Below, piece by piece: positions 3,628 through 42,918 of a stretch of DNA of 64,000 bases. Numbering within the stretch: position 1 is the stretch's first letter; every line of letters begins with the position of its first letter. The DNA comes from a virus (lineage: Duplodnaviria; Caudoviricetes). Both the position numbers and the translations under genes were made by a program. The stretch spans positions 64,001 through 128,000 of IMG/VR virus record IMGVR_UViG_3300026549_000032; one strand, 5' to 3'. A model generated the notes under the pieces. That model ran no database searches. It was not told where the DNA came from and saw only the letters and a program-made list of their open reading frames with translations.

Positions 3628-4137
3628 ATGATTATACCTGCTGTGTGTTCCCTTGTTCTCTTGGGAACCTATACTATATGGTTCTGTGTGAAGTACGGTA
3701 TCCCTGAGAGTCTTTCTCAGAGTTATTACTACATTCCTTGGAAGCCACTATGGACTCTTGTTCTTATGGCGGCTGGATTTCTCGTTCTCCCCGAGTGCAT
3801 GGATAGAGCTTCCAATGCTCCCACACAGATTATTCCCTTCGTTGGTATCTTTGGTTTGCTCTTGGTGGCAGCCGCACCCAGGGTAAGGGATTATGAAAGA
3901 ACTACACACATAATAGGTGCCTCTGTGGCAGGGATATTCTCACAGTTATGGGTAATCTTATACGGAAAGCCATGGACCCTGTGTGTATGGTTTATCATAC
4001 TCGGTCTATTCTTGATCGGGCATATACAAAATAGAGAGTTAACATTTGGAGAAGTCTTGGATAAGTACAAGATAGTCTTCTGGGGAGAAGTCGCCTGTTT
4101 CTTCACTTTATATATAAATCTATTATGCTTAAAATAA
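3628..4137 (+). CDS. Multi-pass membrane protein
   Basis: 5-6 hydrophobic segments; GIPESLSQSYY motif. Confidence 0.7.
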   Translation: MIIPAVCSLVLLGTYTIWFCVKYGIPESLSQSYYYIPWKPLWTLVLMAAGFLVLPECMDRASNAPTQIIPFVGIFGLLLVAAAPRVRDYERTTHIIGASVAGIFSQLWVILYGKPWTLCVWFIILGLFLIGHIQNRELTFGEVLDKYKIVFWGEVACFFTLYINLLCLK

Positions 4138-4388
4138 TTGAACGGTGGAAATGCACAGTTGCCTACTTCCTAGTATGCTTCTTCTTATTCATGCTAGTTT
4201 TTGTATGCGTCGCTCCTTTCTACCGAGAAAATCCATGCATTCCACGAGCATCTGGCATGATGGCCGTTATGTTTATGAGTATGTGGAAAGAACTTTGGTA
4301 CGATAAAAAGTACGGCGAGAAAGTAAAGAATTCTTGGGTCGGACTCCTCGGAGGTATGATCGGAGCTGCTTTCACGTTTATTCTCTAA
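4125..4388 (+). CDS. Small membrane protein
   Basis: Three hydrophobic segments; overlaps upstream stop. Confidence 0.6.
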   Translation: MLKIIERWKCTVAYFLVCFFLFMLVFVCVAPFYRENPCIPRASGMMAVMFMSMWKELWYDKKYGEKVKNSWVGLLGGMIGAAFTFIL

Positions 4389-4437
4389 AAATAAAAGACT
4401 CTCTAGGGCTTATTAAAGGCTCCAGGGAGTCCCTTTT

Positions 4438-4448
4438 TCTTACTAATG
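4438..4448 (+). promoter_or_regulatory. Putative phage promoter box TCTTACTAATG, 2 nt before ATG 4451
   Basis: Matches recurring (C/T)CTTA-N4-TG motif. Confidence 0.6.
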
Positions 4449-4450
4449 AT

Positions 4451-5275
4451 ATGAAAAAGATTTTAATATTACCTGACATACATGGACGTATGTTTTGGAA
4501 AGAACCTGAAGTCCAGACCGCCTGGGGTGAAGCTGATCATGTTGTGTTCCTGGGAGACTACTTAGATTCCTATCCATGGGAAGGAATTTCCTGGAAGAGG
4601 GCGTGGGATAACTTTATGGAGATAGTCGAGGCTAAGAAGAAGGAACCAAAAAAGGTTACGCTTCTCTTAGGGAACCATGACTATCACTATGCCTTCTCTG
4701 AGATTGTTGGAATGAAAGGAAGCAGGTTCAACTGGGATGAAGCTCCAAAGACAACACGTTTCTTCCAGGATAACTTAGGACTATTCCAGTTTGCTTGGTC
4801 TATGACAAATTCAAAAGGTCTTGTCTACCTCTTTACTCATGCAGGGGTAGTGGGCGGTTGGGTTAAGAGTAACAAGCTAGTTCCCCCAGCTTCGACAAGA
4901 GTAGCATCATGGCTAAACAATTTTGTGGTGAATCCAGATACGCTTCTCTCTATGATGTGGGATGTCTCCAGAGATAGAGGTGGTTATGCTAGATATGGTT
5001 CCCCTATCTGGGCCGATCATGAAGAACATCACTGGAATACATGGAGAGAAAAGAAAATATATCAGATCTTCGGACATTCTCAAGGGTGTTATCACTGGAT
5101 TGCCGGAGACCATTCGGCCTGTCTTGATTGCAGAAGACCATTCATCCTTCTCCCTGAGAGCGGTATTTTTGGAGAACCAGAGACAGTCGAAGGTAATAGA
5201 TACTGGACAAAGGTTATAGAAACATCCGGCCTTCCCACCAAAGAGTGGGTTGATGCTTGGATTAATGAGATATAA
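4451..5275 (+). CDS. Calcineurin-like metallophosphoesterase
   Basis: DIHG, GDYLD, GNHD, THAG, FGHS motifs; start moved to ATG 4451. Confidence 0.9.
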   Translation: MKKILILPDIHGRMFWKEPEVQTAWGEADHVVFLGDYLDSYPWEGISWKRAWDNFMEIVEAKKKEPKKVTLLLGNHDYHYAFSEIVGMKGSRFNWDEAPKTTRFFQDNLGLFQFAWSMTNSKGLVYLFTHAGVVGGWVKSNKLVPPASTRVASWLNNFVVNPDTLLSMMWDVSRDRGGYARYGSPIWADHEEHHWNTWREKKIYQIFGHSQGCYHWIAGDHSACLDCRRPFILLPESGIFGEPETVEGNRYWTKVIETSGLPTKEWVDAWINEI

Positions 5276-6587: not shown

Positions 6588-7514
6588 TCATTCACAAGAG
6601 CTGAAGAAAGGTAACACATGGTACCTGCAACCCAGGCAAGCGTAATAGGGCCAGCGGCTCCAGCCACCATTACTGTTCAGGCGCCAAACCGAATCAGCGC
6701 TTCGCATTGAGGATGAGTAGAACCAATAGCCCCAAGGTATGTTCTCTAAGCCAAGGGCAAACCTAGTTATATTAATCTCTGCCAAAGACAGGAATGCTTC
6801 TTTAAGCTCACCAGTGGCCGGTACGTAACCACCAAGCTTTCTAGCTTTTTCGAAAGCAGGGAATTCTAGATCAGGGTTCTTGAGTAGAATGTCTCTCTGA
6901 TTTTCCTCACCATTCATATCACGGTCAGCTTCTTCAAACTTCATAGTCTTGGCCGTATTAATGATTCGGGAGGTACAGAATACTACATCCTGAAACCATT
7001 CTGTTGATATTATATGTTTGCCAACCTTAATACCAATCACGCCCTTTCTTTCTCGGCCTTCCTGAACACTTACTATACTTTTATCCATTAAGAGTACCTC
7101 TAATGCAAACTGGGGAACAAGGGACTCCAAGGTCTTAGTGTAGAGTTGTTCTGTGGCTCGGGAAACAGTATCTTTAGTGATATGTAACTTCCTCGCAGCT
7201 ACCTGATTCAAGTCATCTTGTATCCACATTCTCGTTCCTGCTGGGATTGTGGCTTTGAAAATCTCTCCACCGTTGTCATTTCTTCTAGCTTCGACGGGAT
7301 TCAGGTAGGCATGTATAGCTCCACCATTCAAGGAAAACTTATATCCATATTCGTCAAAGTTGGGGTCCCCGGAGGGAGTTAAGTCTTTTCCTAACTTAAC
7401 AGGATAGCCTTGGTAGGGAGTTTTATATCCATCTGCGCCCTTCTTTAGGACTTTATAAACTGTAATATCTTCTTTTGTTACAAATCCGTTTTTATTTCCA
7501 ACGTATAAACACAT
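6588..7514 (-). CDS. Two-domain phage protein with C-terminal CLec/DUF1566-like domain (possible DGR target)
   Basis: YVPATGEL...WFYSSS....VW.L...GG.....V.PF pattern resembles the C-type-lectin fold tail. Confidence 0.5.
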   Translation of the reverse strand: MCLYVGNKNGFVTKEDITVYKVLKKGADGYKTPYQGYPVKLGKDLTPSGDPNFDEYGYKFSLNGGAIHAYLNPVEARRNDNGGEIFKATIPAGTRMWIQDDLNQVAARKLHITKDTVSRATEQLYTKTLESLVPQFALEVLLMDKSIVSVQEGRERKGVIGIKVGKHIISTEWFQDVVFCTSRIINTAKTMKFEEADRDMNGEENQRDILLKNPDLEFPAFEKARKLGGYVPATGELKEAFLSLAEINITRFALGLENIPWGYWFYSSSMRSADSVWRLNSNGGWSRWPYYACLGCRYHVLPFFSSCE

Positions 7515-7621
7515 AATTTTAACTTAGTTTGTCTGTTTCTATGAGTAAGGCTTTGAAAAAGAAAAAGGAGGGAGAGAAAGATATTAAAATCTAATCTCTC
7601 CTCATAATTAAAATGATAATT

Positions 7622-9565
7622 TTATTTCAAGGATATGAGTTCAAAACCATTTATTCGTTTGTTCTCGCTATCTGACCAAACCTTAGTGGGTTTAATATCA
7701 AACCACTCTAGCATGTCATTTGCTTTTGCATTTTTATTAATTGAGAGCTCTCGGTATACTTGTCCCAAAATTGATTTAATGTCTTTTGAAGACAGTTTAT
7801 CTCCAGCATTAAAGATACTATAGACTTTTTCTTTAAGGGCATCAGATTTAGTATCTACCACCATTAGCTCTCGTAACTCATTGTCTCTAAACTCATGAGC
7901 TTTACAGGTAGTAGTTCCGAGATATCCATAATAATCTTTAAACCTAGGGTCTCTAATCTCAAACTCAAGTCTCCTAGCTATGTAATCATTTCCTGAAAAA
8001 GAGTCCCTAAACTTGCAATATAGTTCAAGTCGATTATTAAAAGTAGTGTAACTATTAAATTCTTCCAAGAACAACTCAATATACTCTTCATCTCTGTGAC
8101 GAAAATCTTGTTGTTCAACACTTAAACTTTCATCTTGTAAAGAGCTAATAGCACGGGTTACACTAATTCTATCCTGATAGTCCTCTTGAGCAACTTCCCA
8201 AGCTCGCTCATGAGCAATCTCAATAAAGTTATTATAGACAGGTCTATCTAACTTCTCAGAAATACTCATGAAGTTATCACTATATAAACTCAATCCTTTC
8301 TTTAAAAGCTTAGCGTAATATCCTTTATATAGTGCGAGGTTTACTCTTCTGCCATCATCGTCCATATTATCATAGTAATTTCTCAACAGAGTCTCAGTAT
8401 CTGCTTTTCTTTGAGCTTGAAGTTTTTCGAAATCCTCTCTGGTTATCTTATTACCTTCTCTAAGAACTTTATAGAAAATTACTATATTATTCTTGAATGG
8501 ATTCTCTCTATCTCTTTGTCTACCAGCTATTTGTGGGAGATCAAGGGAAATATCTACGGCTAAGCACTGTAGGTTAGGGTCAGCGAAGATATAAGTAGAT
8601 GCACACTTACTATAGAAATCGGCACCTATATAACAAGTGGAGGTACAGAAAGTAAACATCTTATTAGGTTCGTTTTCCATTGGAATCTGACCACGAGTAA
8701 AACCAACCTCCTTTAAGGCCTGGATGTTCTTCTCAGTTTCGCTACAAAGGATATTAACTTCTGATGGATCAAAGTTACCATTCCTTAAGATCCGAGTAAT
8801 ATCTTTGACAGAATTAAAATAGAAAACAGCCTCCTTGCTCTGACAAACCTTCCCCTGGTCGTTGACCGTAATAGGGAAATTTCCCTCTCGATAGTTCTCA
8901 ATAATTCTCATAGCTTCTTTAGGGAGAGATTTAACCAGACGTCTTTGGATGATCAAAGTATCAACACTCCCTGATTTACTCCAATCAAGCTGGTAATAGT
9001 CCAAACCAGCGAATTCAGGGATTCTGCTCAGGTACTTCTCAAGCATGGGAGTAGCACTGAGAAAGAGGACATTAGGACATTCGTGGATAGTCTCTAGGAA
9101 ATTATTCTCAACCCCTGCTTTAAAATAGGCGTCAACGAAAATTGACTGAAACTCATCCACGACAAAGATAAACTGATCCAAAAGATTACGAGACTTTAAG
9201 TAATCAACAACGTAGTGAGTAGAGTCATAGGTAACCATAAACTTAATAGCCTGACCAGTGGTTAAGCAGGATAGGATATGATTAGCCATAATATCACTCA
9301 GTGAGTCTACATCTTTGAAATCCTTTATTTCGTTCTTCAGGTAGATAATATTCTTTTCCTCTTGATGTTTTCTGGCTTTATTCTCCAAGAGCATCTTCCT
9401 TGGGGAACAAAGAACAACGTGTCTGTTATTAGTCAAACACAATTCGGTGTAACCACATCCGGTCACACCTTTATCAACAATACATTGCCCTTCAGGCAAT
9501 TCATAGTCTTTCCATTCGGAAATATATCTAGTTCCAAAGGGAACTGTCATTGGAATTATATTCAT
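7622..9565 (-). CDS. SF2 helicase-like / origin-binding-like protein, paralog A
   Basis: TGCGYT (degenerate Walker A), SPR, VTYDS, DEFQ, LSATP, YIGADF, QIAGRQR; basic C-terminal domain. Confidence 0.75.
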   Translation of the reverse strand: MNIIPMTVPFGTRYISEWKDYELPEGQCIVDKGVTGCGYTELCLTNNRHVVLCSPRKMLLENKARKHQEEKNIIYLKNEIKDFKDVDSLSDIMANHILSCLTTGQAIKFMVTYDSTHYVVDYLKSRNLLDQFIFVVDEFQSIFVDAYFKAGVENNFLETIHECPNVLFLSATPMLEKYLSRIPEFAGLDYYQLDWSKSGSVDTLIIQRRLVKSLPKEAMRIIENYREGNFPITVNDQGKVCQSKEAVFYFNSVKDITRILRNGNFDPSEVNILCSETEKNIQALKEVGFTRGQIPMENEPNKMFTFCTSTCYIGADFYSKCASTYIFADPNLQCLAVDISLDLPQIAGRQRDRENPFKNNIVIFYKVLREGNKITREDFEKLQAQRKADTETLLRNYYDNMDDDGRRVNLALYKGYYAKLLKKGLSLYSDNFMSISEKLDRPVYNNFIEIAHERAWEVAQEDYQDRISVTRAISSLQDESLSVEQQDFRHRDEEYIELFLEEFNSYTTFNNRLELYCKFRDSFSGNDYIARRLEFEIRDPRFKDYYGYLGTTTCKAHEFRDNELRELMVVDTKSDALKEKVYSIFNAGDKLSSKDIKSILGQVYRELSINKNAKANDMLEWFDIKPTKVWSDSENKRINGFELISLK

Positions 9566-9592
9566 TGTATAATTTTAATTTTCTTCTCCTTT

Positions 9593-9628
9593 CATGGGTA
9601 AAGGTTTCAAGTCGTCCCGAGCGCAAAA
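9593..9628 (-). promoter_or_regulatory. Putative promoter TTTGCG-N21-TA-N4-TG upstream of paralog A
   Basis: Reverse strand TTTGCGCTCGGGACGACTTGAAACCTTTACCCATG; same spacing as the 24772 (-) and 60881 (+) promoters. Confidence 0.55.
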
Positions 9629-9684
9629 TTTTCATTTCACGCTCGCGCGAAGAGGGATCTAAGCAGAGATATTCTTTTTCTTTG

Positions 9685-10035
9685 TTTGTCTAAAAATTTT
9701 CCCCACGAACGTATTCTCTCTATAATAGCATAGAAAAATGGAAAAATTAGACACTTGATTATCTTCTCCGCCTCGCCTAAGCTCGGCTCCGAAATACCAT
9801 CCTATATCCAACTGGGATGGCCGGAACGGCCCTTTCCTTTCGACATCCCGGGCGCGAGGACGAGTGATAACGAGGACGAAGTTGGCGTGGTGGGCGGGAT
9901 GTCGGTACGCTTGTCTTCTTTATTTCTCCTTACATCCGTCTTAGCCCTACAAAAATCAGACACTTCCATCTCTTGGTGTCATTTTTCTATATCACCTTAG
10001 TGAGGATTAAGAATTTTGTCAAAAACGGACACCAA
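9685..10035. other. Non-coding origin-like cassette A
   Basis: Inverted pairs TGTCTAA/TTAGACA (9687-9753) and TTGGTGTC/GACACCAA (9973-10035) flank a GC-rich core with GACATCCCG/CGGGATGTC and CGAGGACGA x2. Confidence 0.55.
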
Positions 10036-10059
10036 ATTCCACAAACGCCGACATTAACC

Positions 10060-10070
10060 CCTTACCTATG
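10060..10070 (+). promoter_or_regulatory. Putative promoter box CCTTACCTATG, 2 nt before ATG
   Basis: Recurring motif. Confidence 0.65.
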
Positions 10071-10072
10071 AT

Positions 10073-11137
10073 ATGAAAGAAGAAATGAACAATAAAAATC
10101 GATTAAAAATTATTTTTCGACCGTTTCTTCCTGAAACCAACTCCTCATCCTCACATTCCCTTGTTATTACACAAGGCACTCCCTACATTCTCCCAGGGAA
10201 TCCTCTCTGGGATGTTCCGACCGACCCATTGACCGCCAAACTCAAGATCGCCGGTTATGCATCATTCGGTCGTGGGGCTGGTGTGTATAACAGTGTCTAT
10301 TCAAAGATTCAGTATACCGCTGCTGCCTTGTGTTATTGGTCTAGGACAGAGAGAGCTTCGCATGAAGGTCTCCTCCGACTAGAAAGGATTATCAAGGATG
10401 TAACTGGTGTACCAGGGGTGACCTGGGAATGGATTCCTGATTATTATAAACGTCTCTTTACGGCCTATCAGGATCCTCGTGAGTTTATGAAGTACGGAGA
10501 GGAGGAAGAGTTTGGTTGGCCCGATGTGGACCATGAAGGAACGGATCGTTTTCCTGAAGTCTTAGAGTCAGATCAGACTATAGCCGACTTCATATTCTCC
10601 CCAACCTCAGTTCTCTATACTGGGGATGATGGTGGTTCGCCTTCTGTTCAATTCTTTGGAAGAACGGAACCTAAAGCTATTCTCCACGTAGAGATCCCTG
10701 AGCCCATCGGGCGTATAGATCTCCCTCTCTATAAATGGCCATGTAATGTGTTAAGTGAGATAGGAGACGTCTTGGGAAGAGGACCCTTGGATTCTGTGGT
10801 CTTTGAGAAAGGATCAACCCCTGGGGAATATATTGTCCGGGGGAAGGATGCCAGAGACCGCGAGCGTGTTCTCATAGATAATCCCTCGGGATCAGGTCCA
10901 AGAGTGGAACAAGATCAAGGGAGATTCTACTTTGCTGGGACAAACTATTTCAACCTCTTCAGGGATTTCCCGGCGGATGAGAAGCTGTACTGGTTTAGTC
11001 CGGCTCTCCCAGGTTATGTGGATGGGATTCGGAATGCTAATTATTCCCTCCCCGACGCTATGAAAGATCATCCCGACCTTTGGTTAGGTATCCCCTGGTC
11101 AGTAACAATCCTAGAACTTGGAGGAATCGAAGTATGA
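10073..11137 (+). CDS. Hypothetical protein with N-terminal ETNSSSSHS motif (radical SAM-associated)
   Basis: PETNSSSSHSLVI near N-terminus; ATGA overlap with radical SAM gene. Confidence 0.8.
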   Translation: MKEEMNNKNRLKIIFRPFLPETNSSSSHSLVITQGTPYILPGNPLWDVPTDPLTAKLKIAGYASFGRGAGVYNSVYSKIQYTAAALCYWSRTERASHEGLLRLERIIKDVTGVPGVTWEWIPDYYKRLFTAYQDPREFMKYGEEEEFGWPDVDHEGTDRFPEVLESDQTIADFIFSPTSVLYTGDDGGSPSVQFFGRTEPKAILHVEIPEPIGRIDLPLYKWPCNVLSEIGDVLGRGPLDSVVFEKGSTPGEYIVRGKDARDRERVLIDNPSGSGPRVEQDQGRFYFAGTNYFNLFRDFPADEKLYWFSPALPGYVDGIRNANYSLPDAMKDHPDLWLGIPWSVTILELGGIEV

Positions 11138-12147
11138 TGATGTTCACTAGAGAGTATTACCCAGGGACCTATATAAACGGAAACTATTATGTTACAGGAT
11201 CCCCGGAGAATGGAACAAGAGTTAAGAGGACTCTTAGGGTGGGTGAAGATTTTAAACCTGCCTTCCCAGATTCCATTGACTTGAAAATAACGTCTGCCTG
11301 TGGGTTTGGATGTCCTTTCTGCCATGAAAGTGCTACCCCGAACGGTAAGACGGCTGATCTTGAAAGACTAAAAGCATTCTTAGACCCTCTCCCCAGGGTT
11401 GGTATAGAGGTTGCTATTGGTGGGGGAGATATATTCTCCTGTCCAGAGTTTACCTATGACTTGGTTAAGTGGCTAGAGAAGGATAATGGTTTTCTACCCC
11501 GTCTCACTCTGTCCCATAGGAACTATGAGGAACTAAACGATACTGTCGTCGAAGGGATGCTTCAATATACTAAGTTCTCTGAGGATTCCGTTGAGAAGAA
11601 ATTAACCTATCTCTTGGAAGAAATTCCGGTGGGTGTTAGTCTTAATCAGTACTTAGAGAATCCTATTCCAGACAGAATAAGTGCATCCTCCTTCCGTTTG
11701 AGTAGTGAGAGAATAGTGTACCATGTCATTGCTGGAGTTATTAATCCGGAGGACCTATGGGAAATGTGGTTAGATAGAAGACACTATCGAAAGATTCTTG
11801 TCCTTGGGTTTAAACAATTTGGACGGGGCGCTTCTTATACCCTCCCAGACCTAGACAAGACGAAGGAAGTAGTGGAGAGGATTCTTGCTCGACAGAAAGG
11901 TCTATTCACTGGAGAAGTTAGAAAGGTTATTGCCTTTGATAACTTAGCCATTGAACAGCTCGGTATCAAGAGTCTCCTACCCAAAGAGGAATGGGACACG
12001 TTCTATCAGGGAGATGAATTTACAGCTTCCATGTATGTTGATGCCGTGGAAGAAACTGTTGCCCCTACCTCAAGGACCCCTAAGGAGGAGAGAACCTCAT
12101 GGAATCAGACAACCCTTTTAAAGTACTTCAATGAAAACCATCGCTAA
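11134..12147 (+). CDS. Radical SAM protein 1
   Basis: DLKITSACGFGCPFCHE (CxxxCxxC), EVAIGGGD, GFKQFGRG; start at ATG 11134. Confidence 0.9.
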   Translation: MMMFTREYYPGTYINGNYYVTGSPENGTRVKRTLRVGEDFKPAFPDSIDLKITSACGFGCPFCHESATPNGKTADLERLKAFLDPLPRVGIEVAIGGGDIFSCPEFTYDLVKWLEKDNGFLPRLTLSHRNYEELNDTVVEGMLQYTKFSEDSVEKKLTYLLEEIPVGVSLNQYLENPIPDRISASSFRLSSERIVYHVIAGVINPEDLWEMWLDRRHYRKILVLGFKQFGRGASYTLPDLDKTKEVVERILARQKGLFTGEVRKVIAFDNLAIEQLGIKSLLPKEEWDTFYQGDEFTASMYVDAVEETVAPTSRTPKEERTSWNQTTLLKYFNENHR

Positions 12148-12679
12148 AAAAGAAAAAGTATTTGCCTTGGCTGGTATAGATCCAACCTGGAGGTGGAAGA
12201 GATTAGAAGTTAATGAAGGTACGCGGAGACATTGGGGTTATCCCTACTGGATTACCGATCAGGGGACTCCTATCATCATAGATCCCTATCGGTGGATGGT
12301 TTTCTGGCCGAGCCAATACCCTGAGCCGGAGAACATAGATCCAGATCCCTATGAAGGTGTTGATTGGGGAAATTGGAAAATCACTCGCCTAAGTGAGGAG
12401 AAGCCTTACATACGAAATGAATATGCAAGAAGTACATGGAACTATAATGTACTGTATAAGACAGGCGTATACGAAGTCAAGGATACCAAGTGGGGAGACT
12501 CCTATGAGATACAACTTCTCTGCTGGGATGTTGAATATGAATTCCAAACATTCCTCAGGACACCCCTCAAAGTGAATTCAAACTTGGGATCTGAGACTAT
12601 TCGCCTGGAAGATGAATTTTACCTAGAAATATTTAAACATAATGGAGAAAGCTATAAAGTCGCTCATCTCAACTGTTAA
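12131..12679 (+). CDS. Hypothetical protein (Trp/Tyr-rich)
   Basis: Overlapping operonic ORF. Confidence 0.7.
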   Translation: MKTIAKKEKVFALAGIDPTWRWKRLEVNEGTRRHWGYPYWITDQGTPIIIDPYRWMVFWPSQYPEPENIDPDPYEGVDWGNWKITRLSEEKPYIRNEYARSTWNYNVLYKTGVYEVKDTKWGDSYEIQLLCWDVEYEFQTFLRTPLKVNSNLGSETIRLEDEFYLEIFKHNGESYKVAHLNC

Positions 12680-13055
12680 CAAGAAGATGAAAGTGACCTA
12701 TAAGGGAGGCGGCTGGATTGATGCCAGACGAACTCCTACCAGTGGTCAGAATATGGTTAATTCCCTGGAAGAATTTATTGATGCTGTCTTTAATCAGGAG
12801 TGTTATGACATCCCTGAGCTTAGGGAGGTAGAGGAACTCTTAGGAGGACGTCTCTTCAGTTGTACCTTAGAGGGAGAAGATGAAGCAAGACGTAGGTATA
12901 AACAGGCCACTATGACTATGGTTAGTCCTGAAGATATCGAGAACCCTAGTGAAGAACTCATTGAGCTCTTAGAGACAGCCAGGAAGTTCTTTGGTGGGAC
13001 GAAGATTAAATTTAATAGTGTACCAACTAAAATAAGATACAGCGTAGAATGGTAG
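12642..13055 (+). CDS. Hypothetical protein
   Basis: Operonic ORF. Confidence 0.65.
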   Translation: MEKAIKSLISTVNKKMKVTYKGGGWIDARRTPTSGQNMVNSLEEFIDAVFNQECYDIPELREVEELLGGRLFSCTLEGEDEARRRYKQATMTMVSPEDIENPSEELIELLETARKFFGGTKIKFNSVPTKIRYSVEW

Positions 13056-14506
13056 AAAAGTGGAGATTAGTAGAATCGTGTCGGCTTGTGCTGAATAAGG
13101 AAGCAAAAGAAGTTACTTTCAGACCAACCGACGTTAAGAAAGCTAGTGACGAAGGAATACTCCTTAGTGAGCCTGAGTTTGACTTAAAGTTTGATGATTC
13201 CTTAACCCCATGGATTAAATGGAAGGAGGAATATTACACTGTGAAAAACTTTATCCCCACCAACGAAGCTAGGGGGAAGTTAATCCGAGCTATGTCTGGC
13301 TTAGAGGGAACTAAACTTGATCCCGTCTTCAGTGAGGAAGCGGCGGATGCAGTTTGGTTCGTCAAGGCTGGAACACAGGAATATAAAGATGCTAGTGATG
13401 AAATGATTCGTCGACTGAATTGCAGTATGATGAAGAAAACTAGGAAATGGAAGCCTGGTCATCGCTACGATAGTGAGGATAAGACATACTACTATCTTGG
13501 GAAGTTCGTTAGTCATCGTAAGAATTATGACTCAAGCGAATTTCTCCATGATCCGGTTGAATGTCACTTAGTAGTTGAGAAGATTCCTGATGGAGTCAAG
13601 ACTATTCCCGATGTTCTCAGGACAGGTCTCTATGGAAGTACTGGAAAGGAGTTTATCCATACCCTTTGGGGTTCTAGTCTTCCCTTGATGGTTGATTCTG
13701 GACAAGCCTTAACAGATTCAGAGGAACCTTGGGATCTTCAGAGTCTCTACATGGACCAGCTTAAGAATATCTATGAGACAGGGGCCCCACTAGAGAAAGC
13801 TCTTGAGGTATTCGCCTACACAGACAAACCAGATGATGTATTTCTCCCCGGTTCGGTGGATCTAGATCCCATTGTGGCTCAGGTAAAGGTCACCATGGCA
13901 AACTTACTCATCGAGTGGTGGAACCTGAAATATAATGGAGATGCTCAGTATGTTGGTTCAGACCAGAACGAGGAAGGAAATATAAAGGGACTTATTACCC
14001 TTTTCTCGGGGAGTCTTGACCAGGAGAATATATTCAGAACTCTCTACTATCCAGAACTCTTCCGACTCATTGGTATTGACCTCACAGCTCTCGCTAAAGA
14101 AGCCTTGATTAACTGGGGTGGTGGTTATCTATTGAAAGGTGATTTTGACTATTACGTTAACGTATTACCTCTCTGGAGAAAACACCACAGAGAAATAGTG
14201 GACCTAGATCAGGCTTCCTCAGGGAATACAAATAATTTCCTCGGCAATAAGTTTAGTTCCCACCTGGCCGTTGCCTTAGAGAAACTACTTATCTCTGCTG
14301 CTTCGAATGGTGGTGAGGGAGTAACCTCATGGAAAGAGATCAACCGTGGGATCGCCAATAGGCCTGATATAGTGATTCAGGCAAGAGTCCTCCTCCAAGA
14401 TATCCTGGCTTTAGGAGAACCTAGTGAAACTCTTAAAAGTGATATTATTAACTCAGGATTTCAAGAGTTAAATATTAAGTTTATGAAAGATAAAGGCGTA
14501 AAATGA
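13049..14506 (+). CDS. Hypothetical protein
   Basis: 485 aa ORF coupled to infA. Confidence 0.8.
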
Positions 14507-14784
14507 AAGAACAAGCCATAATCAAAGAAGGAGTTGTTATAGAGGAACTTGGAAACTCCATGTTTAAAGTTCAACTCGACATGATTGGAGAACCAGTTAT
14601 CCTCTGTAGCATATCAGGAAAAATAAGAAAATATTATATCCGAATCTTGACTGGTGATCGGGTCAAGGTAGAGATGTCTCCTTATGACTTAACGAAAGGA
14701 CGAATCGCTACTAGACTCAAAGCTCCGGGCCAAGAGGAGGTAATAGGTAACAATAGTAATAACTCAAAAAAGAAAAAGAAATGA
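14503..14784 (+). CDS. infA: Translation initiation factor IF-1
   Basis: [17 protein letters not shown]...[32 protein letters not shown]; basic C-terminal extension. Confidence 0.95.
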
Positions 14785-15494
14785 GAAGACCAAAATTGAC
14801 GAACACCATGATTGGTAATGTCTATCCCTTCTTCCTGAACAATCAGGCATTGAAAACGTACTATCTCTATCAGATAGTTAGTCCAGGGGCTCTTAGCGAC
14901 TATACGCCGCTACTCACACTCCAGAAGATTTGTGAGAGGACAGGAGACAAGGACTTCAGTGCCGTGGAGAGAAAGGATTGCTGCATGTACGGAGCAGACA
15001 TCATTGCCACTCTCCTGAAGAGTCGTAAAAACATAAAGGCAGAGGCAGTCAAGTATCTCTCCGAACAGATCTTGGCCCGTGGTGATGGCAGTTGGCAGCC
15101 CACTCTGTATGAGAATGATGTTGATTTCCCAATCTTCGAAATGGATTGGAACAACAGTGTAGCAAAGGCCCTGATCATTGGTCTGCGTGACGCCCTGAGA
15201 TGGCAGCAGTATCGCTTTGCCCCAGGAAATAAGATCGATCTTCTCTTGACTCCAACGAAGTTTGGTGTCTTTGAGATTAAGGGTGATAAAGAAGCTATCT
15301 GGTTGGAGCCCGTTGGTGTGTTCCACAACAATGATGTAGAGATGAAGAATCCCATCGCCGGAGTAAACATGCAGGAACTCGATTGGCCTAAGGGTAAGTA
15401 CGTTGGAGCTACTCGTGCAAGTGCTCTGAATCGTGTACTCCGCCAGACAGAGTGGAAATCATTTGATAACACAGAAATTAAGGAGGCCCGTTAA
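14781..15494 (+). CDS. Hypothetical protein
   Basis: 237 aa, ATGA overlap with infA. Confidence 0.75.
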
Positions 15495-15517
15495 AGGTCT
15501 CCTCTTTTTTATAGACT

Positions 15518-15979
15518 ATGAGTACATCAATAGAAAACATAATTAGAGGACTGGTCTATTGGTCAGAACTCTTAGAGAAACAGAAAAAGAAGATAACTTG
15601 GCTAGTAAGAATTGTCTGGCTAGTGGTTATTGCAGTCTTGGTCTGGTGTTGGGGATGGTATGGAGGAAGTCTCCTGAAGAAGGGGATAATAACAGTATCC
15701 CTTATGTTGGGCCTCATAGCGATCTGGGGATGGACTGTTTTATATGAAATGTTCGCCTCATATCTCCTTGTCTCCTACAACATATCTAAAGCAACCACCA
15801 CGGAAACAGAACTCCTCGCAGATAATATGATCTTAGAGGACATGAAAGGTGGTAGCAGAAATGAAGAAGAGATGCAGTTCCTCTGGATACAGCTCAGAAC
15901 GGAGCTTGGTCAATGGATTGGTAGAAAACTACTTTCAGCCAGAGGATTCACTCCACCAGAGGGAGGAGAAGAAAAATAA
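15518..15979 (+). CDS. Membrane protein (2 TM)
   Basis: Two long hydrophobic helices. Confidence 0.7.
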   Translation: MSTSIENIIRGLVYWSELLEKQKKKITWLVRIVWLVVIAVLVWCWGWYGGSLLKKGIITVSLMLGLIAIWGWTVLYEMFASYLLVSYNISKATTTETELLADNMILEDMKGGSRNEEEMQFLWIQLRTELGQWIGRKLLSARGFTPPEGGEEK

Positions 15980-16029: not shown

Positions 16030-18732
16030 TCACACCACTACGAATGCCTTCTTTGTAGCGGGATCATAGTCCACTGTGAAACTCATTGCATCAGGGGCAT
16101 CAATCATTGCTCGCCCGACGGAATCTGTTACCCAGCGCTCTATATTACGATTAAGCTCTCGTGCTCCAAGACCAGCCGTACACTCATCAAGTACATGGTT
16201 CTTGAGGGCAGGAGTTACTTTTATCTTCAAGCGGCTCTTATTGAGCTGCTTTTTAATTTTCTCCAGTTCGAGGTTGAATACCTTGCTGAGGTCATCTCTC
16301 GTGAAGTGACGGAATACTATCTGTCTTGTGAGTCGATTTCTGAATTCCGGCTTAAACTTCTTCTCGATAGCCTTCTGGACAATCTCCTTGTCCTTATTGT
16401 GGCGCTCCTCGTCAGTCGGCTGGGTGAAACCAACCCTAAGCTGTGAGGCTACTTCCTTCGTACCTATGTTAGAGGTGAAGATTATGATTGTATTAGAGAA
16501 GTCGATCAACTCACCACTACTCAGGTTAATACGTCCCTCGTCGAGAATTGGGAGAAGCACGTCATAGATATGTTCGTTTGCTTTCTCAATCTCATCAAAG
16601 AGGAGGACACAAGATCCACCATTTGTGTCACGAACCTTGATAAGCTCACCAGACTCGTCACTCCTAACATAACCTGGAGCTGCACCTAAGAGTCGAGTCA
16701 CGTCTGCCTCAGACGTCATGCTACTCATATCAAATCTCACAAGCGCTTTCTCCGTGCCATAGAAGATTTCAGCCAGTTTCTTGGCGAGATAAGACTTACC
16801 AACACCAGTTTCACCTGAGAACAGGAGCACACCATAAGGTTTGTTAGCTGGTTTAACTCCTAGCACTGCTCTCTGGATACAACCCATAACTTCGTCTATG
16901 GCTTCTGGCTGACCAATCACTGTACGGGTCAACTCCTCACGCAAGAACTTCAGCTTCTCTCTGTCGTTCTGAGCTACCTTGTCATAGGGAATTCGGCTTA
17001 TATTAGAGACGGCCATGATGACGTCTTTGTCTTCAACTTCAGTCCAGTTAGTCCTCTTATTGGCTTCTTTAGCTGTAGCCTTAGTCTCTCGCTCAATAAC
17101 TTCATTCAAGGCCTTCTCCTCGTTCCTGAGGCGTTCTGCTTCCTCGAAGTCCTGATCCTCCATGACGGCTTTCTTCTTAAGCTCAATAACTTCAGCTAAG
17201 CGCTTTTCGGCCTCCGTTACGTCTTCCTTCTTCTCCGTGATTCGTTTCAAGGAGGCCAGCGAACCAGCCATATCCATGGTATCAACGGCCTTGTCAGGGA
17301 AGTTCTTGTCTGCCATGTACTTACCACTTAGCTCAACACAAAGGTCGAGAATGGCGGGAGTATAACGTACTCGATGGAACTTCTCATAGTTGCCAGCAAT
17401 TCCCTTCAGGATCTTCAAGGTTTCTGCCTGAGTTGGTTCCTCTACCATGACCTGGGTGAATCGACGATTCAGGGCTTTATCCTTCTCGATATACTTACGG
17501 TACTCGGCAGGAGTTGTTGCACCAATCATCTGGAACTCACCACGTGCCAGGTAAGGCTTGAGAATATTACCAGTATCGTTCTGACCACCAGCCGAACCTG
17601 ATACCAGGGTATGAAGCTCATCCAAGGCAATGATAATGTCCTTGTTGTTACATACCTCCTTGATTAGTTTCTGGAGACGTTCCTCGAATTGACCACGATA
17701 CTGAGTACCAGCCACTAGATCATTCAAGTTGAGGCTACATATCCTCTTTCCCTGAAGTTTCTCTGGAACTTCCCCGGAGGCAATTCTCTGAGCAAGTTTC
17801 TCTATAATAGCGGTCTTACCAGTTCCAGCCTCTGACAAGAGAGCAATGTTTGGCTTACGCCTCTTCAAAAGAATCTCTATCATAGATTCTACCACATCGT
17901 CTCTACCAATCACTGGATCAAATTCACCACGAGCTGCTTTCTTTGTCAGGTCTACACTGTAACGGTCCAAGTTAGGAGTATCGGAGTTGGGGTCAAGTTC
18001 AGTTCCGTCTATGGCTTCATGACGACCTGCTTCCTCGAACTCCCTTTCTTCATCTCCATCACCACCACCGTTATTAGCTTGTGGGGTAGGAGCTTCCCCG
18101 CCAGTCTTCTCTAGGATTTCTCCTATGAATTTTGCTGCCTCGTTTGGATCTCCATCAGCTACTGTCTTCACTAAAGAGTCCATGAGACCAGCTACGCTCT
18201 TAGCATCTGCTTTTCTATTAGATACCATTATCTCGTATAATACTTTTGATTCAAAACCTTCCATGTGGAGGTATTCAATACAATCTTCGTCCTCACCACT
18301 CATCTTAAGAGCAGCCATGAGAACAACGTCCGTATCAAGTTCGCTCATTCTCTCAGGGAAGAGTTGCTTACTTTCCCCGAGGGCATCGTCAAAGATGTCT
18401 TTCATGTTATCACTTAACATGATCATGGTTGGGTCGAATAGGTCAAGGTCATCACTATAGGTAGGTGCTACCTCTTCTTCTGTGTCTGTTAGCCCAGCTA
18501 AGGCATCCAGGATCCTCTTCTTATCTGGCTCTTTTAATCCAGAGAAGAAATCCTTTACAGACTTATTATATTTTCTGTCGGTTCCTCTTCCACTAAAGTA
18601 ATAGTAGAATAGGCTGTAAATAAAATTACCGACCGTAATTTCTGTAATCTTTGCTTCTTGTGCCGCTTGGTAAGAAGCTTTTAGAATTTTTGTTAATTCT
18701 TCAGTGTTGTCAAAAAATTTCATTCTTTTCAT
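16030..18732 (-). CDS. clpC: ClpC/ClpA-type AAA+ unfoldase
   Basis: Two AAA modules (EAGTGKT/DELH; [13 protein letters not shown]), YRGQFEER pore loop, UVR-like middle domain [16 protein letters not shown] ClpP-docking loop. Confidence 0.85.
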
Positions 18733-40209: not shown

Positions 40210-40557
40210 ATGAACGAAATAAAACTACACGAACTAGTAGCAAACGTATTTAGGGATTACCCATATAATGCGTGTTTATATATAGGAAAATATAGATTTA
40301 AGGCGGAAGGAGAGACAACTCCAGAGGTAGATGTATGTTTCCCATGGGAAGCGACTGACGTGGAGGATATTCCCTTCTCCGTCTATAGTAGAGGACCAAT
40401 TATCACTGGTAAACCAAAGGAGAGCATAGACAAGTTGCTTATGTTCTTCTTGGATGATAGTCCGACGAACTATTTCACAGTAGTTCATAGAGAGCCCGGC
40501 AAAGACTACTACATGTACATAGATAGACATTCAGATATATACGTAACAAAAGTATGA
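40210..40557 (+). CDS. Hypothetical protein
   Basis: First gene of the TNSS/radical SAM operon. Confidence 0.7.
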   Translation: MNEIKLHELVANVFRDYPYNACLYIGKYRFKAEGETTPEVDVCFPWEATDVEDIPFSVYSRGPIITGKPKESIDKLLMFFLDDSPTNYFTVVHREPGKDYYMYIDRHSDIYVTKV

Positions 40558-41123
40558 TCAAGGTTAAAAGTATAACTGACGTTATTACTAACTCAAGCAC
40601 AGAAGTATTTGTATTGAAATTAACAAGTAAAGAAGTTGAATGGCTTGAGAATAAAAGAATAACGTACGCCAGAGAAGCTCTGAAAGCTAACAAGGAAAAT
40701 AAAACTTGGATGAGAAGCTTGAGTGAGAAAGAGAGAAAAGAGTATACTTCCCTCGACTTTCTCCTTGAAGAGGTTGACGAATGTAAGGTTGTCTTAGCTC
40801 CCTGCTTCACTAGGGAAGGTCTCTTGTGGGGCTTGGGCAATAAAGAAGATAGAAAGAGATTCTGGGTTAATGATGACTGGGAGTATATCAGAAAAATTAT
40901 AGGCGGTAAAGCCATCGAAGAGACAGACGAGGATCCAGATTTTAGGTCATTTAATAAATGGTTGGCAAATAATATAGACTGGATCTCCGAGAAGATGAAG
41001 GATGTCTGGCTCATGGAAGTCTGTAACTATGACGAGAAAATCTATGAGAAGCTAGATCTCTATGCTCACATGGATAACCTACCCAAAGATGGTAAAGTTT
41101 TGTTTTATGAATGTAGGCATTAA
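40554..41123 (+). CDS. TNSS-motif protein 1
   Basis: MIKVKSITDVITNSSTEVFV. Confidence 0.8.
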   Translation: MIKVKSITDVITNSSTEVFVLKLTSKEVEWLENKRITYAREALKANKENKTWMRSLSEKERKEYTSLDFLLEEVDECKVVLAPCFTREGLLWGLGNKEDRKRFWVNDDWEYIRKIIGGKAIEETDEDPDFRSFNKWLANNIDWISEKMKDVWLMEVCNYDEKIYEKLDLYAHMDNLPKDGKVLFYECRH

Positions 41124-41526
41124 GAGTATCACCGACGTCATAACTAACTCAAGTACAGAAGTATTTGTAGTTAAGAAAAGAGGTAAACAAGTAGCTGAGA
41201 ATGGTTACTTCTCTGGAATAAACACACCACAATCTGTTAACTGGGAACCCAAGGAGATAACTTGGAAGTGGTTAAGGTCTAATCAAGGGAAGTCTGAATG
41301 GATGATGATATGTGACCTGGTTGACAAACCCTACACTGAGCTATCAACTTCTGGGGATGAACCTGATTGGGGTAGGTGGAACGACTGGGTTACTCTTCAC
41401 AAACATAGAATCCAAGATAGAGCTATTGGCTTATGGTTCCTAACAATCCGAGATGGCTTTGGTGGATTCTTAGACATGGTAAAGGATATAAAAGATTACA
41501 TTGTCTGGCATGAAAATAGGCATTAA
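41107..41526 (+). CDS. TNSS-motif protein 2
   Basis: MNVGIKSITDVITNSSTEVFV; start at ATG 41107. Confidence 0.8.
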   Translation: MNVGIKSITDVITNSSTEVFVVKKRGKQVAENGYFSGINTPQSVNWEPKEITWKWLRSNQGKSEWMMICDLVDKPYTELSTSGDEPDWGRWNDWVTLHKHRIQDRAIGLWFLTIRDGFGGFLDMVKDIKDYIVWHENRH

Positions 41527-41803
41527 GAGTAGGACAGATATAATAACCAATTCTAGTACGGAGGTTTATGAGATCATCATTAATGGATCTCCTAAGAGAG
41601 TTGAAGAGGTACTTCAAGGAATCTTAGACACCTTAGATTGGGTTGGACATGACACAGCTAGAGTGACCACTGAAGATAATGTTATAACTTTAACTGGTAT
41701 TGAAGACAACTCGATCCCATTCCCCTTGATAAACTTATTAGAGAAAGGAAAGTTTAAAGAGTGGTTTGATGAAATTAGTGAAATTAAAAATAGAAGAATA
41801 TGA
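41510..41803 (+). CDS. TNSS-motif protein 3
   Basis: MKIGIKSRTDIITNSSTEVYE; start at ATG 41510. Confidence 0.8.
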   Translation: MKIGIKSRTDIITNSSTEVYEIIINGSPKRVEEVLQGILDTLDWVGHDTARVTTEDNVITLTGIEDNSIPFPLINLLEKGKFKEWFDEISEIKNRRI

Positions 41804-42918
41804 AAAATTTTACAGGCTGGGGAACAAAGATTAGAAGAGACCTTAGCAAGAACTACTATGCCATATGGCAAAACTTAGTAACAACGCGTCTCGACCTGGG
41901 AGATGAGATTGCCCTAGAGCCGGAGAAGTCTGAGTTCATGGATGTTGGTATAACCTCCAGATGTAATGCATGTTGTCCGTTCTGCTATGTCAGTGCAAGC
42001 GATAAAGGTCTTGATTACAAGAATATTGCCAAGACATGGAAGAAATGGATGGCAACAATGCCCGCTGATAGACCAATAGATCCTAGTCTTCTCCCGGAGG
42101 ACGATCCATTGAAGGAGGTCTTTGATGACAAGCGAACTCCAAAAGAGCTGCTCATAGATATAGCAGAAATTGGAGCGGGTAAGAAAAAGACCAATGACGC
42201 TGGTGAAAACATGGACGACCTGGAGTTAATTCTCAAGATCAAATCCTTCACAGCCCTGGGACTTCCGCTGGTAGAAACATTTAGGCCTTATCAGGTGGCT
42301 TGTGGTTCGATTGGTGAGCCAACAATTCATCCAGAGTTTGTAGAATTCTTACAGGCTGTCTTTGAGACTGGTGTGGTTCCCAATTATACAACAAACGGAA
42401 TCGTACTCTCAGACTATAGGACACAAGAATGTAAGGACCTCCTAGAGGCAACTAAGCAGTTCTGTGGTGGTGTGGCAGTTAGCTTTGGTAATAAGAAACT
42501 TCACCCACATGCAAGAGTAGCTATAGAGAACTTAATTTTATACGGGGAATGCAAGGTGGTCATCCACCACATCATTAGTGACAAGGCTAGTGTGGACGAT
42601 ATGATTAGTCTTGCCAAGGAATATAAAGATCGACTCCACTACCACGTCCTGCTGCCACTTATGGCTCATGGTCGTAGTAAGGAAGGCCTCCAGGAAGGAG
42701 TCTTTGAGTATATGTATGAGAAATGTGAAGAGGAAGGAGTGACGAATTTGGCCTTTGGTGCTAACTTCGCTCCTCAATTGAAGGCACATCCAGACCTCTT
42801 CCCCGTCTATGAGTATCCTCAGGAGATCTATAGCAAGAATGTACTCCTGCAGGAGGATAAAGTAGTAATAACACCAAGTAGCTTTAATTTAAAGCCATGC
42901 AAGACGATAGAATTGTAG
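41800..42918 (+). CDS. Radical SAM protein 2
   Basis: DVGITSRCNACCPFCY (CxxxCxxC), GEPTIHPEF, PNYTTNG, VAVS. Confidence 0.9.
   Translation: MKNFTGWGTKIRRDLSKNYYAIWQNLVTTRLDLGDEIALEPEKSEFMDVGITSRCNACCPFCYVSASDKGLDYKNIAKTWKKWMATMPADRPIDPSLLPEDDPLKEVFDDKRTPKELLIDIAEIGAGKKKTNDAGENMDDLELILKIKSFTALGLPLVETFRPYQVACGSIGEPTIHPEFVEFLQAVFETGVVPNYTTNGIVLSDYRTQECKDLLEATKQFCGGVAVSFGNKKLHPHARVAIENLILYGECKVVIHHIISDKASVDDMISLAKEYKDRLHYHVLLPLMAHGRSKEGLQEGVFEYMYEKCEEEGVTNLAFGANFAPQLKAHPDLFPVYEYPQEIYSKNVLLQEDKVVITPSSFNLKPCKTIEL

Follow-up and report, generated by a model that had tools for sequence, protein, structure and literature searches.

Two overlapping phage genes raise the question of what a radical SAM enzyme does beside a protein that opens with a serine-rich motif. 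The genes lie in a stretch of 64,000 nucleotides (the window) from a virus of the Caudoviricetes; the source phage is large and uncultured, and comes from the gut. Most probably the pair is a system not described before, whose role is the chemical modification of entire proteins at their N-terminal end.

The gene pair

The upstream gene, ORF A, encodes a 354 aa protein with PETNSSSSHS near its N-terminus and is coupled through ATGA to the gene of a divergent radical SAM enzyme, rSAM-A. These features were named in the original prediction, together with the CGFGCPFC motif of the enzyme, its VAPTSR sequence and its want of auxiliary-cluster cysteines, and every one of them has been borne out. 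The features of the locus are:

10073..11137, + strand: ORF A, type-A client protein of 354 aa (open frame), with an N-terminal tag, a domain of ~170 residues and a subfamily-specific C-terminal domain
10103..10159, + strand: tag of ORF A, made of the leader strand LKIIFR (residues 11-16) and the core ETNSSSSHS (residues 21-29, nt 10133-10159)
11120..11137, + strand: translational coupling site, with GGAGGA at 11120-11125, 8 nt upstream of the ATG, and the ATGA overlap at 11134-11137
11134..12147, + strand: rSAM-A, single-cluster radical SAM enzyme of 337 aa, clade phrog_16999 (profile matches, alignment and AF2 model)
11170..11253, + strand: N-terminal beta-sheet of rSAM-A, residues 13-40 (AF2 strands 13-15, 18-22 and 29-33), the predicted docking site of the leader strand
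11299..11322, + strand: CX3CX2C motif CGFGCPFC, predicted ligand site of the radical SAM [4Fe-4S] cluster (C56, C60 and C63 conserved)

In the overlap, the TGA stop of ORF A (11135-11137) shares letters with the ATG of rSAM-A at 11134. The start of ORF A is ambiguous: a second in-frame ATG at 10085 would shorten the protein by 4 residues, and neither start is favoured. A sigma-70 promoter scan of 9400-15600 found sites no more numerous than in shuffled sequence.

The tag and the proteins that carry it

Residues 11-29 of ORF A translate as LKIIFRPFLPETNSSSSHS, with LPETNSSSSHS at 19-29. Mean column identity across 143 homologues is 14%. None of them varies in N23, S24, S25, S26 or H28, and R16, E21 and T22 are retained in 90% or more. 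Such conservation of the motif is far beyond chance. In the logo of 127 unique tags, position -6 is R and position -1 is E, each in 99%. ORF A meets the family criterion, which is hR..h(F/P)ETNSSSxH no more than ~25 residues from the start, beside a clade-A radical SAM gene. The tag occurs on more than a thousand protein clusters, nearly all viral. An exhaustive profile search was needed to see this breadth (1222 cluster representatives of ORF A homologues at E<=1e-3); a word-indexed search gave only five close relatives.

At least three unrelated kinds of protein are headed by the type-A tag. That the TNSS stretch is a fixed active-site strand of one enzyme family was considered and rejected, because the tag heads unrelated proteins too. 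The type-A protein is also more than a carrier of the motif, as most members share a domain of ~170 residues and unknown fold. A profile of this domain without the tag matches 67 of 104 unique tag-A proteins; the domain is absent from the other 37, and a second recurrent kind of client exists. In length, type-A clients range from 90 to 350 aa, and many of them contain a conserved globular domain. Invariant polar residues of the domain in the 143 homologues are K78, Y81, D153, H154 and D186, and its motifs (FGW, K..Y, (I/V)DH.S and G.D) are met in ORF A at F65-G66, K78, Y81, D153-H154 and G184-D186.

Known families offer little help. ORF A has no family in Pfam, NCBIfam, PHROGs or PADLOC, and a Pfam scan of its 143 homologues gave scattered single matches only. 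Short type-A clients match phrog_28997, a family of unknown function that includes gp130 of Ma-LMM01; in the PHROG search ORF A itself does not. Phage GenBank holds no match to the region by megablast or to ORF A by tblastn, a PDB sequence profile search with ORF A found none, and the structure and feature atlases return viral hypothetical proteins only. The AF2 model of ORF A (pLDDT 82.8) has no PDB fold match at E<=1e-3 by Foldseek, and the best Z by VIA-align against 48,161 chains is 3.1. These negatives are no proof of a new fold, and the C-terminal domain (200-354) was never folded separately. Residues 1-23 are modelled with low confidence. In its place at the extreme N-terminus and its low confidence in the monomer model, the tag appears substrate-like.

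A compact radical SAM enzyme

The enzyme rSAM-A matches Pfam Radical_SAM (PF04055) at E 1e-5 and 26.2 bits (26.6 bits in the genome search), under the cut-off of 29.5 bits; a fused relative, gp146c of Salmonella phage Arash, clears the cut-off at 51.4 bits. The match to phrog_16999 ('Fe-S oxidoreductase') is strong, with E 1.9e-42 and residues 40-333 covering positions 5-286 of the 288 in the profile. When 36 homologues are aligned, C56, C60 and C63 are the only conserved cysteines, and the C-terminal region has neither a cysteine cluster nor a single conserved cysteine. The family thus lacks an auxiliary cluster. The ...VAPTSR segment is a family motif in which S313 is invariant (36 homologues), and the glycine-rich SAM-binding strand motif E(L/V)AIGGG(N/D) is conserved as well. 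Scores of rSAM-A with the NCBIfam SPASM models are far under their cut-offs; membership in the SPASM or anSME groups was ruled out, because the auxiliary cysteines are lacking.

The AF2 model of rSAM-A (pLDDT 87.9, pTM 0.88) matches 64 PDB chains at E<=1e-3, and the top matches listed are almost all radical SAM enzymes. As modelled, the protein meets the criterion of a partial TIM-barrel fold of the superfamily. The best matches are CteB (E 4e-8), SkfB, SuiB with its peptide, anSME and EpeE; the closest fold relatives of the predicted structure are radical SAM maturases that modify peptides or proteins. N-terminal of the core, no Pfam or NCBIfam domain was found and the model has three short strands before the barrel; a divergent recognition element is not excluded. 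The N-terminal sheet segment carries an insertion, and does so only in the subclade paired with PETNSSSSHS clients.

Linkage in other phages

Linkage of the two genes was followed in both directions. Starting from the tag, the neighbourhoods of homologues of the 354 aa protein contain a clade-A enzyme within 6 kb in 75 of 80 viral loci. Of the five exceptions, two have the enzyme at another place in the contig, and three come from fragments of 16-38% completeness. Starting from the enzyme, a tag gene lies upstream on the same strand in 79 of 80 loci, the median gap being -3 (the 4-nt overlap seen here); the remaining locus, L253, has no tag gene within 6 kb. The two-gene pair recurs in hundreds of phages. 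The only families common to 56 dereplicated loci are the tag and the enzyme (56 and 55 loci), the next commonest being present in 9, and no third conserved partner (reductase, protease, transporter or SAM synthetase) was found in them.

In Arash gp146c, an N-terminal ATNSSSSHS domain and a radical SAM domain are in one protein. In Microcystis phage Ma-LMM01, gp130 (FETNSSSTHS) is two genes upstream of gp128, a homologue of the enzyme. In Prevotella phage Lak-C1 a single enzyme precedes several proteins, each beginning with MK(V/I)QIRxGVFETNSSS, and up to 5-6 tagged proteins with unrelated bodies can follow one enzyme. The two-way linkage and the Arash fusion support the inference, made earlier from the sequence of this phage alone, that the pairing is functional.

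A sister locus with its own tag and enzyme

The same gene order, with diverged partners, recurs 30 kb away, as had been noticed:

40554..41803, + strand: three type-B tagged proteins, ...S(I/R)TD(V/I)ITNSSTEV (from sequence)
41800..42918, + strand: rSAM-B, 372 aa, with CNACCPFC (from sequence and the enzyme tree)

The type-B tag is D[VI]ITNSS[ST]E, as against ETNSSSxH for type A. Type-B tags are dispersed in the genome, with 11 genes at 5 places and only 3 of them adjoining the enzyme, whereas type-A clients are nearly always adjacent to theirs.

The original prediction held that there are two sub-types, each with its own enzyme, and suggested comparing motif type with enzyme phylogeny. The co-variation is perfect. 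Both outcomes named in advance as grounds for rejecting the prediction, a lack of co-variation and homologues of the 354 aa protein that usually lie apart from radical SAM genes, were looked for, and the results favour the prediction. All 80 full-length clade-A enzymes are near tag A only, and all 39 of clade B near tag B only. On a tree of 50 dereplicated enzymes (38 + 12 clusters at 70% identity), each tag type requires one change, on a long single branch (SH-aLRT support 100%); none of 500 shuffles of the labels equalled the observed fit of tag to tree. The split between PETNSSSSHS and FETNSSS inside clade A also follows the tree: a subclade of nine enzymes (support 99) pairs only with (L/M)PETNSSSSHS clients. 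The second pair had been called independent as well. This is correct in that the A and B pairs are functionally separate; they are not evolutionarily independent, because they share the TNSS core and the enzyme region from the N-terminal hairpin to the cluster motif, where rSAM-A and rSAM-B are 33% identical over 60 residues.

A predicted complex of client and enzyme

When ORF A and rSAM-A were modelled together, the complex scored an ipSAE of 0.78, against 0.00 for the best control. Among solved complexes 58 of 80 meet the same mark, and among mismatched pairs 2 of 110 do, a comparison that is only rough here (custom alignments, ligands included). Runs agreed in at least 70% of contacts, and partner pLDDT was 60-64. 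On the client side the predicted interface is confined to residues 7-34, which run into the barrel of the enzyme; no contact from the globular part is confident. The lowest-error contacts join enzyme residues 28-33 to client residues 11-18. The TNSSS.H core is placed against invariant barrel residues, and 14 of the 21 invariant enzyme residues are in the predicted interface (p 1.7e-6). It should be noted that the complex score is the model's own confidence and that placing a peptide in a barrel is common model behaviour.

What the pair may do

We consider it probable that rSAM-A covalently modifies the tag of ORF A, in a self-contained module of two genes, a single-cluster radical SAM enzyme and its protein substrate. 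From the models, the disordered N-terminus of the client would dock by adding its leader strand (LKIIFR, 11-16) to the N-terminal beta-sheet of the enzyme (29-33), and the core E-T-N-S-S-S-S-H-S would thread into the partial TIM barrel, next to both SAM and the [4Fe-4S] cluster. If the chemistry of the family applies, a 5'-deoxyadenosyl radical would then take a hydrogen from an invariant Ser, Thr or Asn and so lead to a covalent change. Which residue is modified, and by what chemistry, are guesses without biochemical evidence; serine oxidation (anSME-like, -2 Da) or an intramolecular cross-link involving His28 can be offered with low confidence. The modified N-terminus might mature or switch the client inside the infected cell. 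A secreted peptide product is argued against, because there is no protease, exporter or third conserved gene. Type-B tags would be served by rSAM-B; having their own enzyme, they would make the phage one that runs two orthogonal tag-enzyme pairs.

Several points count against modification. The enzyme lacks the SPASM/twitch auxiliary clusters used by anSME and most cross-linking maturases, its Pfam score is sub-threshold, and the enzyme at L253 has no tag gene nearby. A fusion of enzyme and substrate, as in Arash, would also be unusual.

The last point fits equally well, as a fusion of subunits, with the strongest alternative: that ORF A is an accessory subunit whose N-terminus plugs or completes the active site of rSAM-A (Ser/His ligands or gating), the heterodimer acting on a third molecule (such as a nucleotide, a nucleic acid or a host protein) that the client domain may bind. 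That domain is conserved and, with its invariant polar residues, could itself be a catalytic partner; an enzyme without auxiliary cluster suits such a role, and the complex model would describe a stable plug equally well. A dedicated subunit is hard to reconcile with the strings of tagged proteins of unrelated body behind one enzyme, the tagged proteins that lack the domain altogether, the absence of confident contacts from the globular part, and fold relatives that are maturases taking a peptide into the barrel. We regard it as unlikely, if still a serious contender.

More doubtful is the possibility that the tag is only a docking handle, the enzyme binding it as a leader and modifying the client elsewhere, or the tag mainly co-localising clients with the enzyme. 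RiPP leaders are recognised and not modified (the SuiB/SuiA type of precedent), and it is from the leader strand that the lowest-error contacts come. However, there can be no common second site, because the bodies behind the tag are unrelated, and it is TNSSS.H, not the leader, that is strictly invariant and that the model sets against invariant barrel residues. Finally, incidental adjacency, with the TNSS motif acting as a signal for sorting, secretion or capsid targeting independently of the radical SAM gene, has nothing in its favour beyond the N-terminal position of the motif and can scarcely be maintained, being effectively refuted already by the two-way linkage and the enzyme tree, with the Arash fusion and the 0.00 of the complex controls also against it.

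Modification of the tag by rSAM-A can be extended into a wider proposal, which we put forward tentatively as one that could well fail. Large phages would carry orthogonal pairs of protein tag and radical SAM writer, of at least three specificities (PETNSSSSHS, FETNSSSxH and D[VI]ITNSS[ST]E), and each would give entire proteins, not otherwise related, a radical-derived modification of unknown nature at the N-terminus. This would be RiPP logic applied to proteins, a portable signal for maturation or switching in infection, possibly in counter-defence.

Novelty and meaning

The literature on phage radical SAM proteins, DUF6375/Avap and megaphages yielded no published description of the pair, and searches with the tag motif strings returned noise only. 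The radical SAM peptide systems described by Kaur et al. (2020) are different ones. In the present pair, linkage, fusion and co-variation all join a compact enzyme that lacks auxiliary clusters to a serine-rich tag of nine residues that is essentially invariant. If the tag is modified, the chemistry would be new among post-translational modifications and the tag-writer pair would be a new portable one, and two or three orthogonal versions in one genome would be of interest for phage biology and as a tool. The system is directly testable, because cultivable phages carry the pair (Ma-LMM01 gp128/gp130 and Arash gp146c).

Comparison with known systems

Only a few radical SAM enzymes are known to modify whole proteins, namely anSME, the glycyl-radical activases, RimO, QhpD and Dph2. 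Those activases (PFL-AE, NrdG) are, like rSAM-A, small single-cluster enzymes, and they act on a folded protein, as is proposed for rSAM-A; PFL-AE is among the fold matches (8fo0, E 1.5e-4), the match to NrdG2 being weak. They target a Gly of a large enzyme, however, in a C-terminal loop, whereas the type-A tag is N-terminal and has no Gly.

Bacterial defence offers a parallel of setting. Avap1, a radical SAM protein, and Avap2 (DUF6375) are an accessory pair of KpAvs2 whose substrate was left unassigned (Bechon et al., 2024, PMC11564622). Here too a radical SAM protein is found with a small partner of unknown role in phage-host conflict, but Avap1 and Avap2 belong to a bacterial defence operon with the Avs2 NLR, to which Avap2 binds. 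No link of ORF A to DUF6375/Avap2 was found: PF19902 has no match in the 218-kb contig at E<=1 and none in the 143 ORF A homologues at E<=0.01. Among phage families, no function has been described for phrog_16999 or phrog_28997, nor any link between the two. Locus B has the logic and the TNSS core of locus A, with a different enzyme clade and tag, and 0 of 159 type-B proteins have the type-A domain.

A close precedent on whole proteins is anSME/AtsB with the sulfatases, where the residue that a radical SAM enzyme modifies is a Ser or Cys, set in a short invariant motif close to the N-terminus of an entire folded protein. The enzyme anSMEcpe is among the top fold matches of rSAM-A (4k36-4k39, E about 2e-5, TM about 0.52). 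It differs in its SPASM domain with two auxiliary clusters, as against only three conserved cysteines in rSAM-A, and in its client motif, (C/S)xPxR as against ETNSSSxH; type-A clients have no relationship to sulfatases, and sequence searches give no match at family level. Nor is the client criterion of that system, (C/S)-x-(P/A)-x-R on a sulfatase of alkaline-phosphatase fold, met by ORF A, whose tag is ETNSSSSHS and which has no Pfam or PDB fold match.

The best structural matches of rSAM-A are SuiB/SuiA, CteB, SkfB and EpeE. Unlike these RiPP maturases, rSAM-A has no SPASM/twitch domain; its model has a three-stranded sheet only, and no PqqD-like RRE is seen, although a divergent one is not excluded. 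The type-A locus differs from RiPP loci in its protein-sized clients and in having no protease, exporter or immunity gene, and the type-A tag is N-terminal with its core as the invariant part. The likeness is in the mode of recognition. In RiPP maturases, as predicted here, the leader lines up as a strand with an N-terminal element of the enzyme while the core goes into the barrel, and a single enzyme can work on several precursors if they have a recognition sequence in common.

The gene pair and its surroundings

The window spans bases 64001-128000 of a 218 kb IMG/VR phage contig, whose completeness is estimated at ~60%. The pair is laid out as follows:

10073-11137, +, ORF A, the type-A client (tagged protein), 354 aa; residues 11-29 are LKIIFRPFLPETNSSSSHS
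11134-11137, +, ATGA stop/start overlap (TGA of ORF A, ATG of rSAM-A), with GGAGGA 8 nt upstream
11134-12147, +, rSAM-A, the clade-A radical SAM enzyme, 337 aa, carrying CGFGCPFC

Both ORFs, the overlap and the motif are thus present where the original prediction placed a 354 aa TNSSSSHS protein ATGA-coupled to a CGFGCPFC radical SAM enzyme. The gene order is, as it also held, repeated at a second locus, where three proteins starting ...TD(V/I)ITNSSTEV precede a radical SAM gene (41800-42918). In the whole contig, type-B tags number eleven at five places; the type-A tag occurs exactly once, in ORF A. Against Pfam Radical_SAM, rSAM-A scores 26.2 bits, slightly under the 29.5-bit threshold, and it matches phrog_16999 at E 1.9e-42. 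The only cysteines conserved in 36 homologues are the three cluster ligands, and the enzyme was therefore rightly described as having no auxiliary-cluster cysteines. The same homologues share the motifs NGNY...DGTK, CxxxCxxCHE, E.AIGGG(N/D), LILGYKxFGRG, SFDNLAIEQL, FYMGDD and FAPTSRS.

The surroundings hold several other genes. Three without a family match (182, 137 and 485 aa; 12131-14506, +) follow the radical SAM gene and are syntenic in a 305-kb relative (L006, 6845-9351). An IF-1 (translation initiation factor) homologue (14503-14784, +; PF01176, E 5e-21) apparently lies in the operon of the pair, which may end at a terminator-like hairpin (15481-15503); an IF-1 homologue is also downstream in L006 and present in 9 of 56 dereplicated loci. 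Farther off are a calcineurin-like metallophosphoesterase (4334-5275, +) and a ClpB/Hsp104-like double AAA+ protein of 900 aa (16030-18732, -).

Linkage of tag and enzyme

The tag-A gene and the clade-A enzyme form a two-gene module, since they alone are common to the 56 loci left after dereplication at 70% enzyme identity (enzyme in 56, tagged protein in 55, the next family in 9). When 80 IMG/VR loci were retrieved by tag pattern, a clade-A enzyme lay within 6 kb in 75, nearly always adjacent and on the same strand; of the five exceptions, two have the enzyme farther along the contig and three are fragments 16-38% complete. Starting from the enzyme, a tag-A gene was found in 79/80 loci, always upstream and in the same orientation; the median gap is -3, which is the ATGA overlap seen at ORF A/rSAM-A. 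The lone exception (L253, 3963-6891) has no tag-A gene within 6 kb; directly upstream of its radical SAM gene are a phage SAM synthetase (388 aa, two genes upstream) and an untagged 277-aa protein without a Pfam match. These counts dispose of the proposed refutation, that homologues of the 354 aa protein would usually not lie beside radical SAM genes.

Named phages show the same association. In Microcystis phage Ma-LMM01, gp128 shares 37% identity with rSAM-A, and two genes upstream of it is gp130 (MLSIQVRQGVFETNSSSTHS...). In Prevotella phage Lak-C1 a series of proteins, all starting MK(V/I)QIRxGVFETNSSS, comes after the enzyme, and gp146c of Salmonella phage Arash joins an N-terminal ...GFATNSSSSHS domain to the radical SAM domain in a single fused protein.

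Co-variation of enzyme clade and tag type

Type-B loci were retrieved with a back-translated tag pattern. Within 3 kb, all 80 full-length clade-A enzymes have tag A and no tag B, and all 39 clade-B enzymes have tag B and no tag A. In a quick maximum-likelihood tree (38 + 12 clusters after dereplication), a single branch with 100% SH-aLRT support splits the tag types; the tag label needs one change, which none of 500 shuffles equalled. The anticipated co-variation of radical SAM clade with motif type is borne out, and the inferred two tag sub-types, each with its own enzyme, are supported. The two systems occur together on many contigs, as in the genome of the window. rSAM-A and rSAM-B (the clade-B enzyme) are 33% identical across a stretch of 60 residues that covers the hairpin and the cluster motif, with no similarity beyond it; judged by sequence, they are distant homologues.

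The window's enzyme falls in a nine-member clade-A subclade (support 99) whose clients are only of the long (L/M)PETNSSSSHS kind (285-346 aa). The N-terminal hairpin, which the model sets against the leader strand of the tag, carries an insertion in this subclade. The remaining clade-A enzymes have hFETNSSS(T/S)H clients as partners, one to five per locus. One locus (L042) carries two clade-A genes of different subclades, at 3942-4862 (-) and 6752-7741 (+); PETNSSSSHS is the only client type visible in the fetched stretch.

Another homologue (L075, 6861-8965; IMGVR_UViG_3300002138_000052) is broken exactly before the third cysteine of CX3CX2C. Its N-piece ends ...CDANCPF/CFHPDSEV, resembling an intein start, and its C-piece resumes ...NCLVHN/CHEKS, resembling an intein end; an HNH endonuclease is encoded by a free-standing ORF at 7339-8130. 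The break looks like a split intein, or one disrupted by an endonuclease, in the loop that binds the cluster.

The client family and its distribution

Word-indexed searches with ORF A gave no relatives beyond five close ones. An exhaustive profile search with its first 215 residues gave 1222 cluster representatives at E<=1e-3 (312 at E<=1e-10), the match starting at residue 2-5 in nearly all. Among 143 relatives, mean column identity is 14%; N23, S24, S25, S26 and H28 are invariant, and R16, E21, T22, F65, K78, Y81, D153, H154, S156 and D186 are at least 90% conserved. A Pfam scan of the 143 gave a meaningful domain in none. The AF2 model of ORF A is confident except at residues 1-23 (pLDDT 82.8, pTM 0.73); it has no Foldseek match among solved structures at E<=1e-3 (best VIA Z 3.1), and its matches in the Atlas are viral hypothetical proteins only.

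A domain profile that excludes the tag picks up 67 of the 104 unique tag-A proteins and none of the 159 with tag B. Among the tag-A proteins that it misses, another type of client recurs: small acidic proteins (~90-150 aa) unrelated to the ORF A domain, with an FETNSSS tag and the ending ...TP(S/N)G..V.AFG(Y/R)YGY (for example ...AFGYYGY):

L004, 7038-7343
L072, 6508-6849
L048, 1448-1891
L065, 6483-6755
L068, 6544-6942

The type-A tag is portable.

The tag-A/enzyme module is essentially viral. IMG/VR scans gave at least 575 tag matches and at least 522 confirmed enzyme loci; a prokaryotic scan of 185,579 species, one genome each, gave 126 tag-pattern matches, of which 12 were confirmed. Among the 12, two are on ~370 kb contigs resembling mis-binned megaphages, which they probably are:

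L283, 376 kb contig binned as Bacilli (water deer omasum), carrying a type-A client
L284, 371 kb contig binned as a Mycoplasmatota MAG, carrying a type-A client

Structure and possible mechanism

In the rSAM-A model (pLDDT 87.9), a radical SAM barrel follows three short strands at the N-terminus. The solved structures that it matches best are maturases acting on peptides and proteins (CteB, SkfB, SuiB with bound SuiA, anSME, the anaerobic sulfatase-maturating enzyme, and EpeE); by sequence it resembles solved enzymes weakly at most. The ORF A/rSAM-A complex, modeled with cluster and SAM riding along, scored 0.78 (best control 0.00), a mark reached by 58/80 solved complexes and 2/110 mismatched pairs, although these counts hold only roughly here. 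The runs share at least 70% of contacts, with partner pLDDT 60-64. Only client residues 7-34 contact the enzyme in the model; of these, 11-18 pair with its strand 28-33 and the others lie against barrel residues. The predicted interface takes in 67 of 337 enzyme residues, yet 14 of the enzyme's 21 invariant positions fall inside it (p 1.7e-6).

The tag could be part of the active site of one enzyme, or a site of recognition and modification. The maturase-like fold matches, the complex model, the enrichment of invariant residues and the portability of the tag together favor recognition and modification, although a covalent change, the residue hit and the role of the client have not been shown. 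That auxiliary clusters are absent speaks against a simple anSME or sactisynthase mechanism. Chemistries that remain possible are serine oxidation with the electron returned via the radical SAM cluster, epimerization, and a His-linked cross-link.

Comparison with known systems

rSAM-A does not pass the defining test of a SPASM/twitch enzyme, ORF A does not pass that of an anSME client, and the module does not pass that of DUF6375/Avap2. We found no paper on the tag-A/radical SAM pair. The nearest printed case is Avap1/Avap2, the radical SAM and DUF6375 (PF19902) accessory pair of KpAvs2, whose roles are likewise unknown (Bechon et al. 2024, PMC11564622); also near are other peptide systems with radical SAM enzymes, located in conflict islands (Kaur et al. 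2020). We rate the module as a protein-modifying radical SAM maturase, its modification not being shown, with an undescribed enzyme clade, tag and client fold, and probably an undescribed chemistry as well. It would work much as a RiPP or anSME-type maturase does, with a leader-like recognition sequence.
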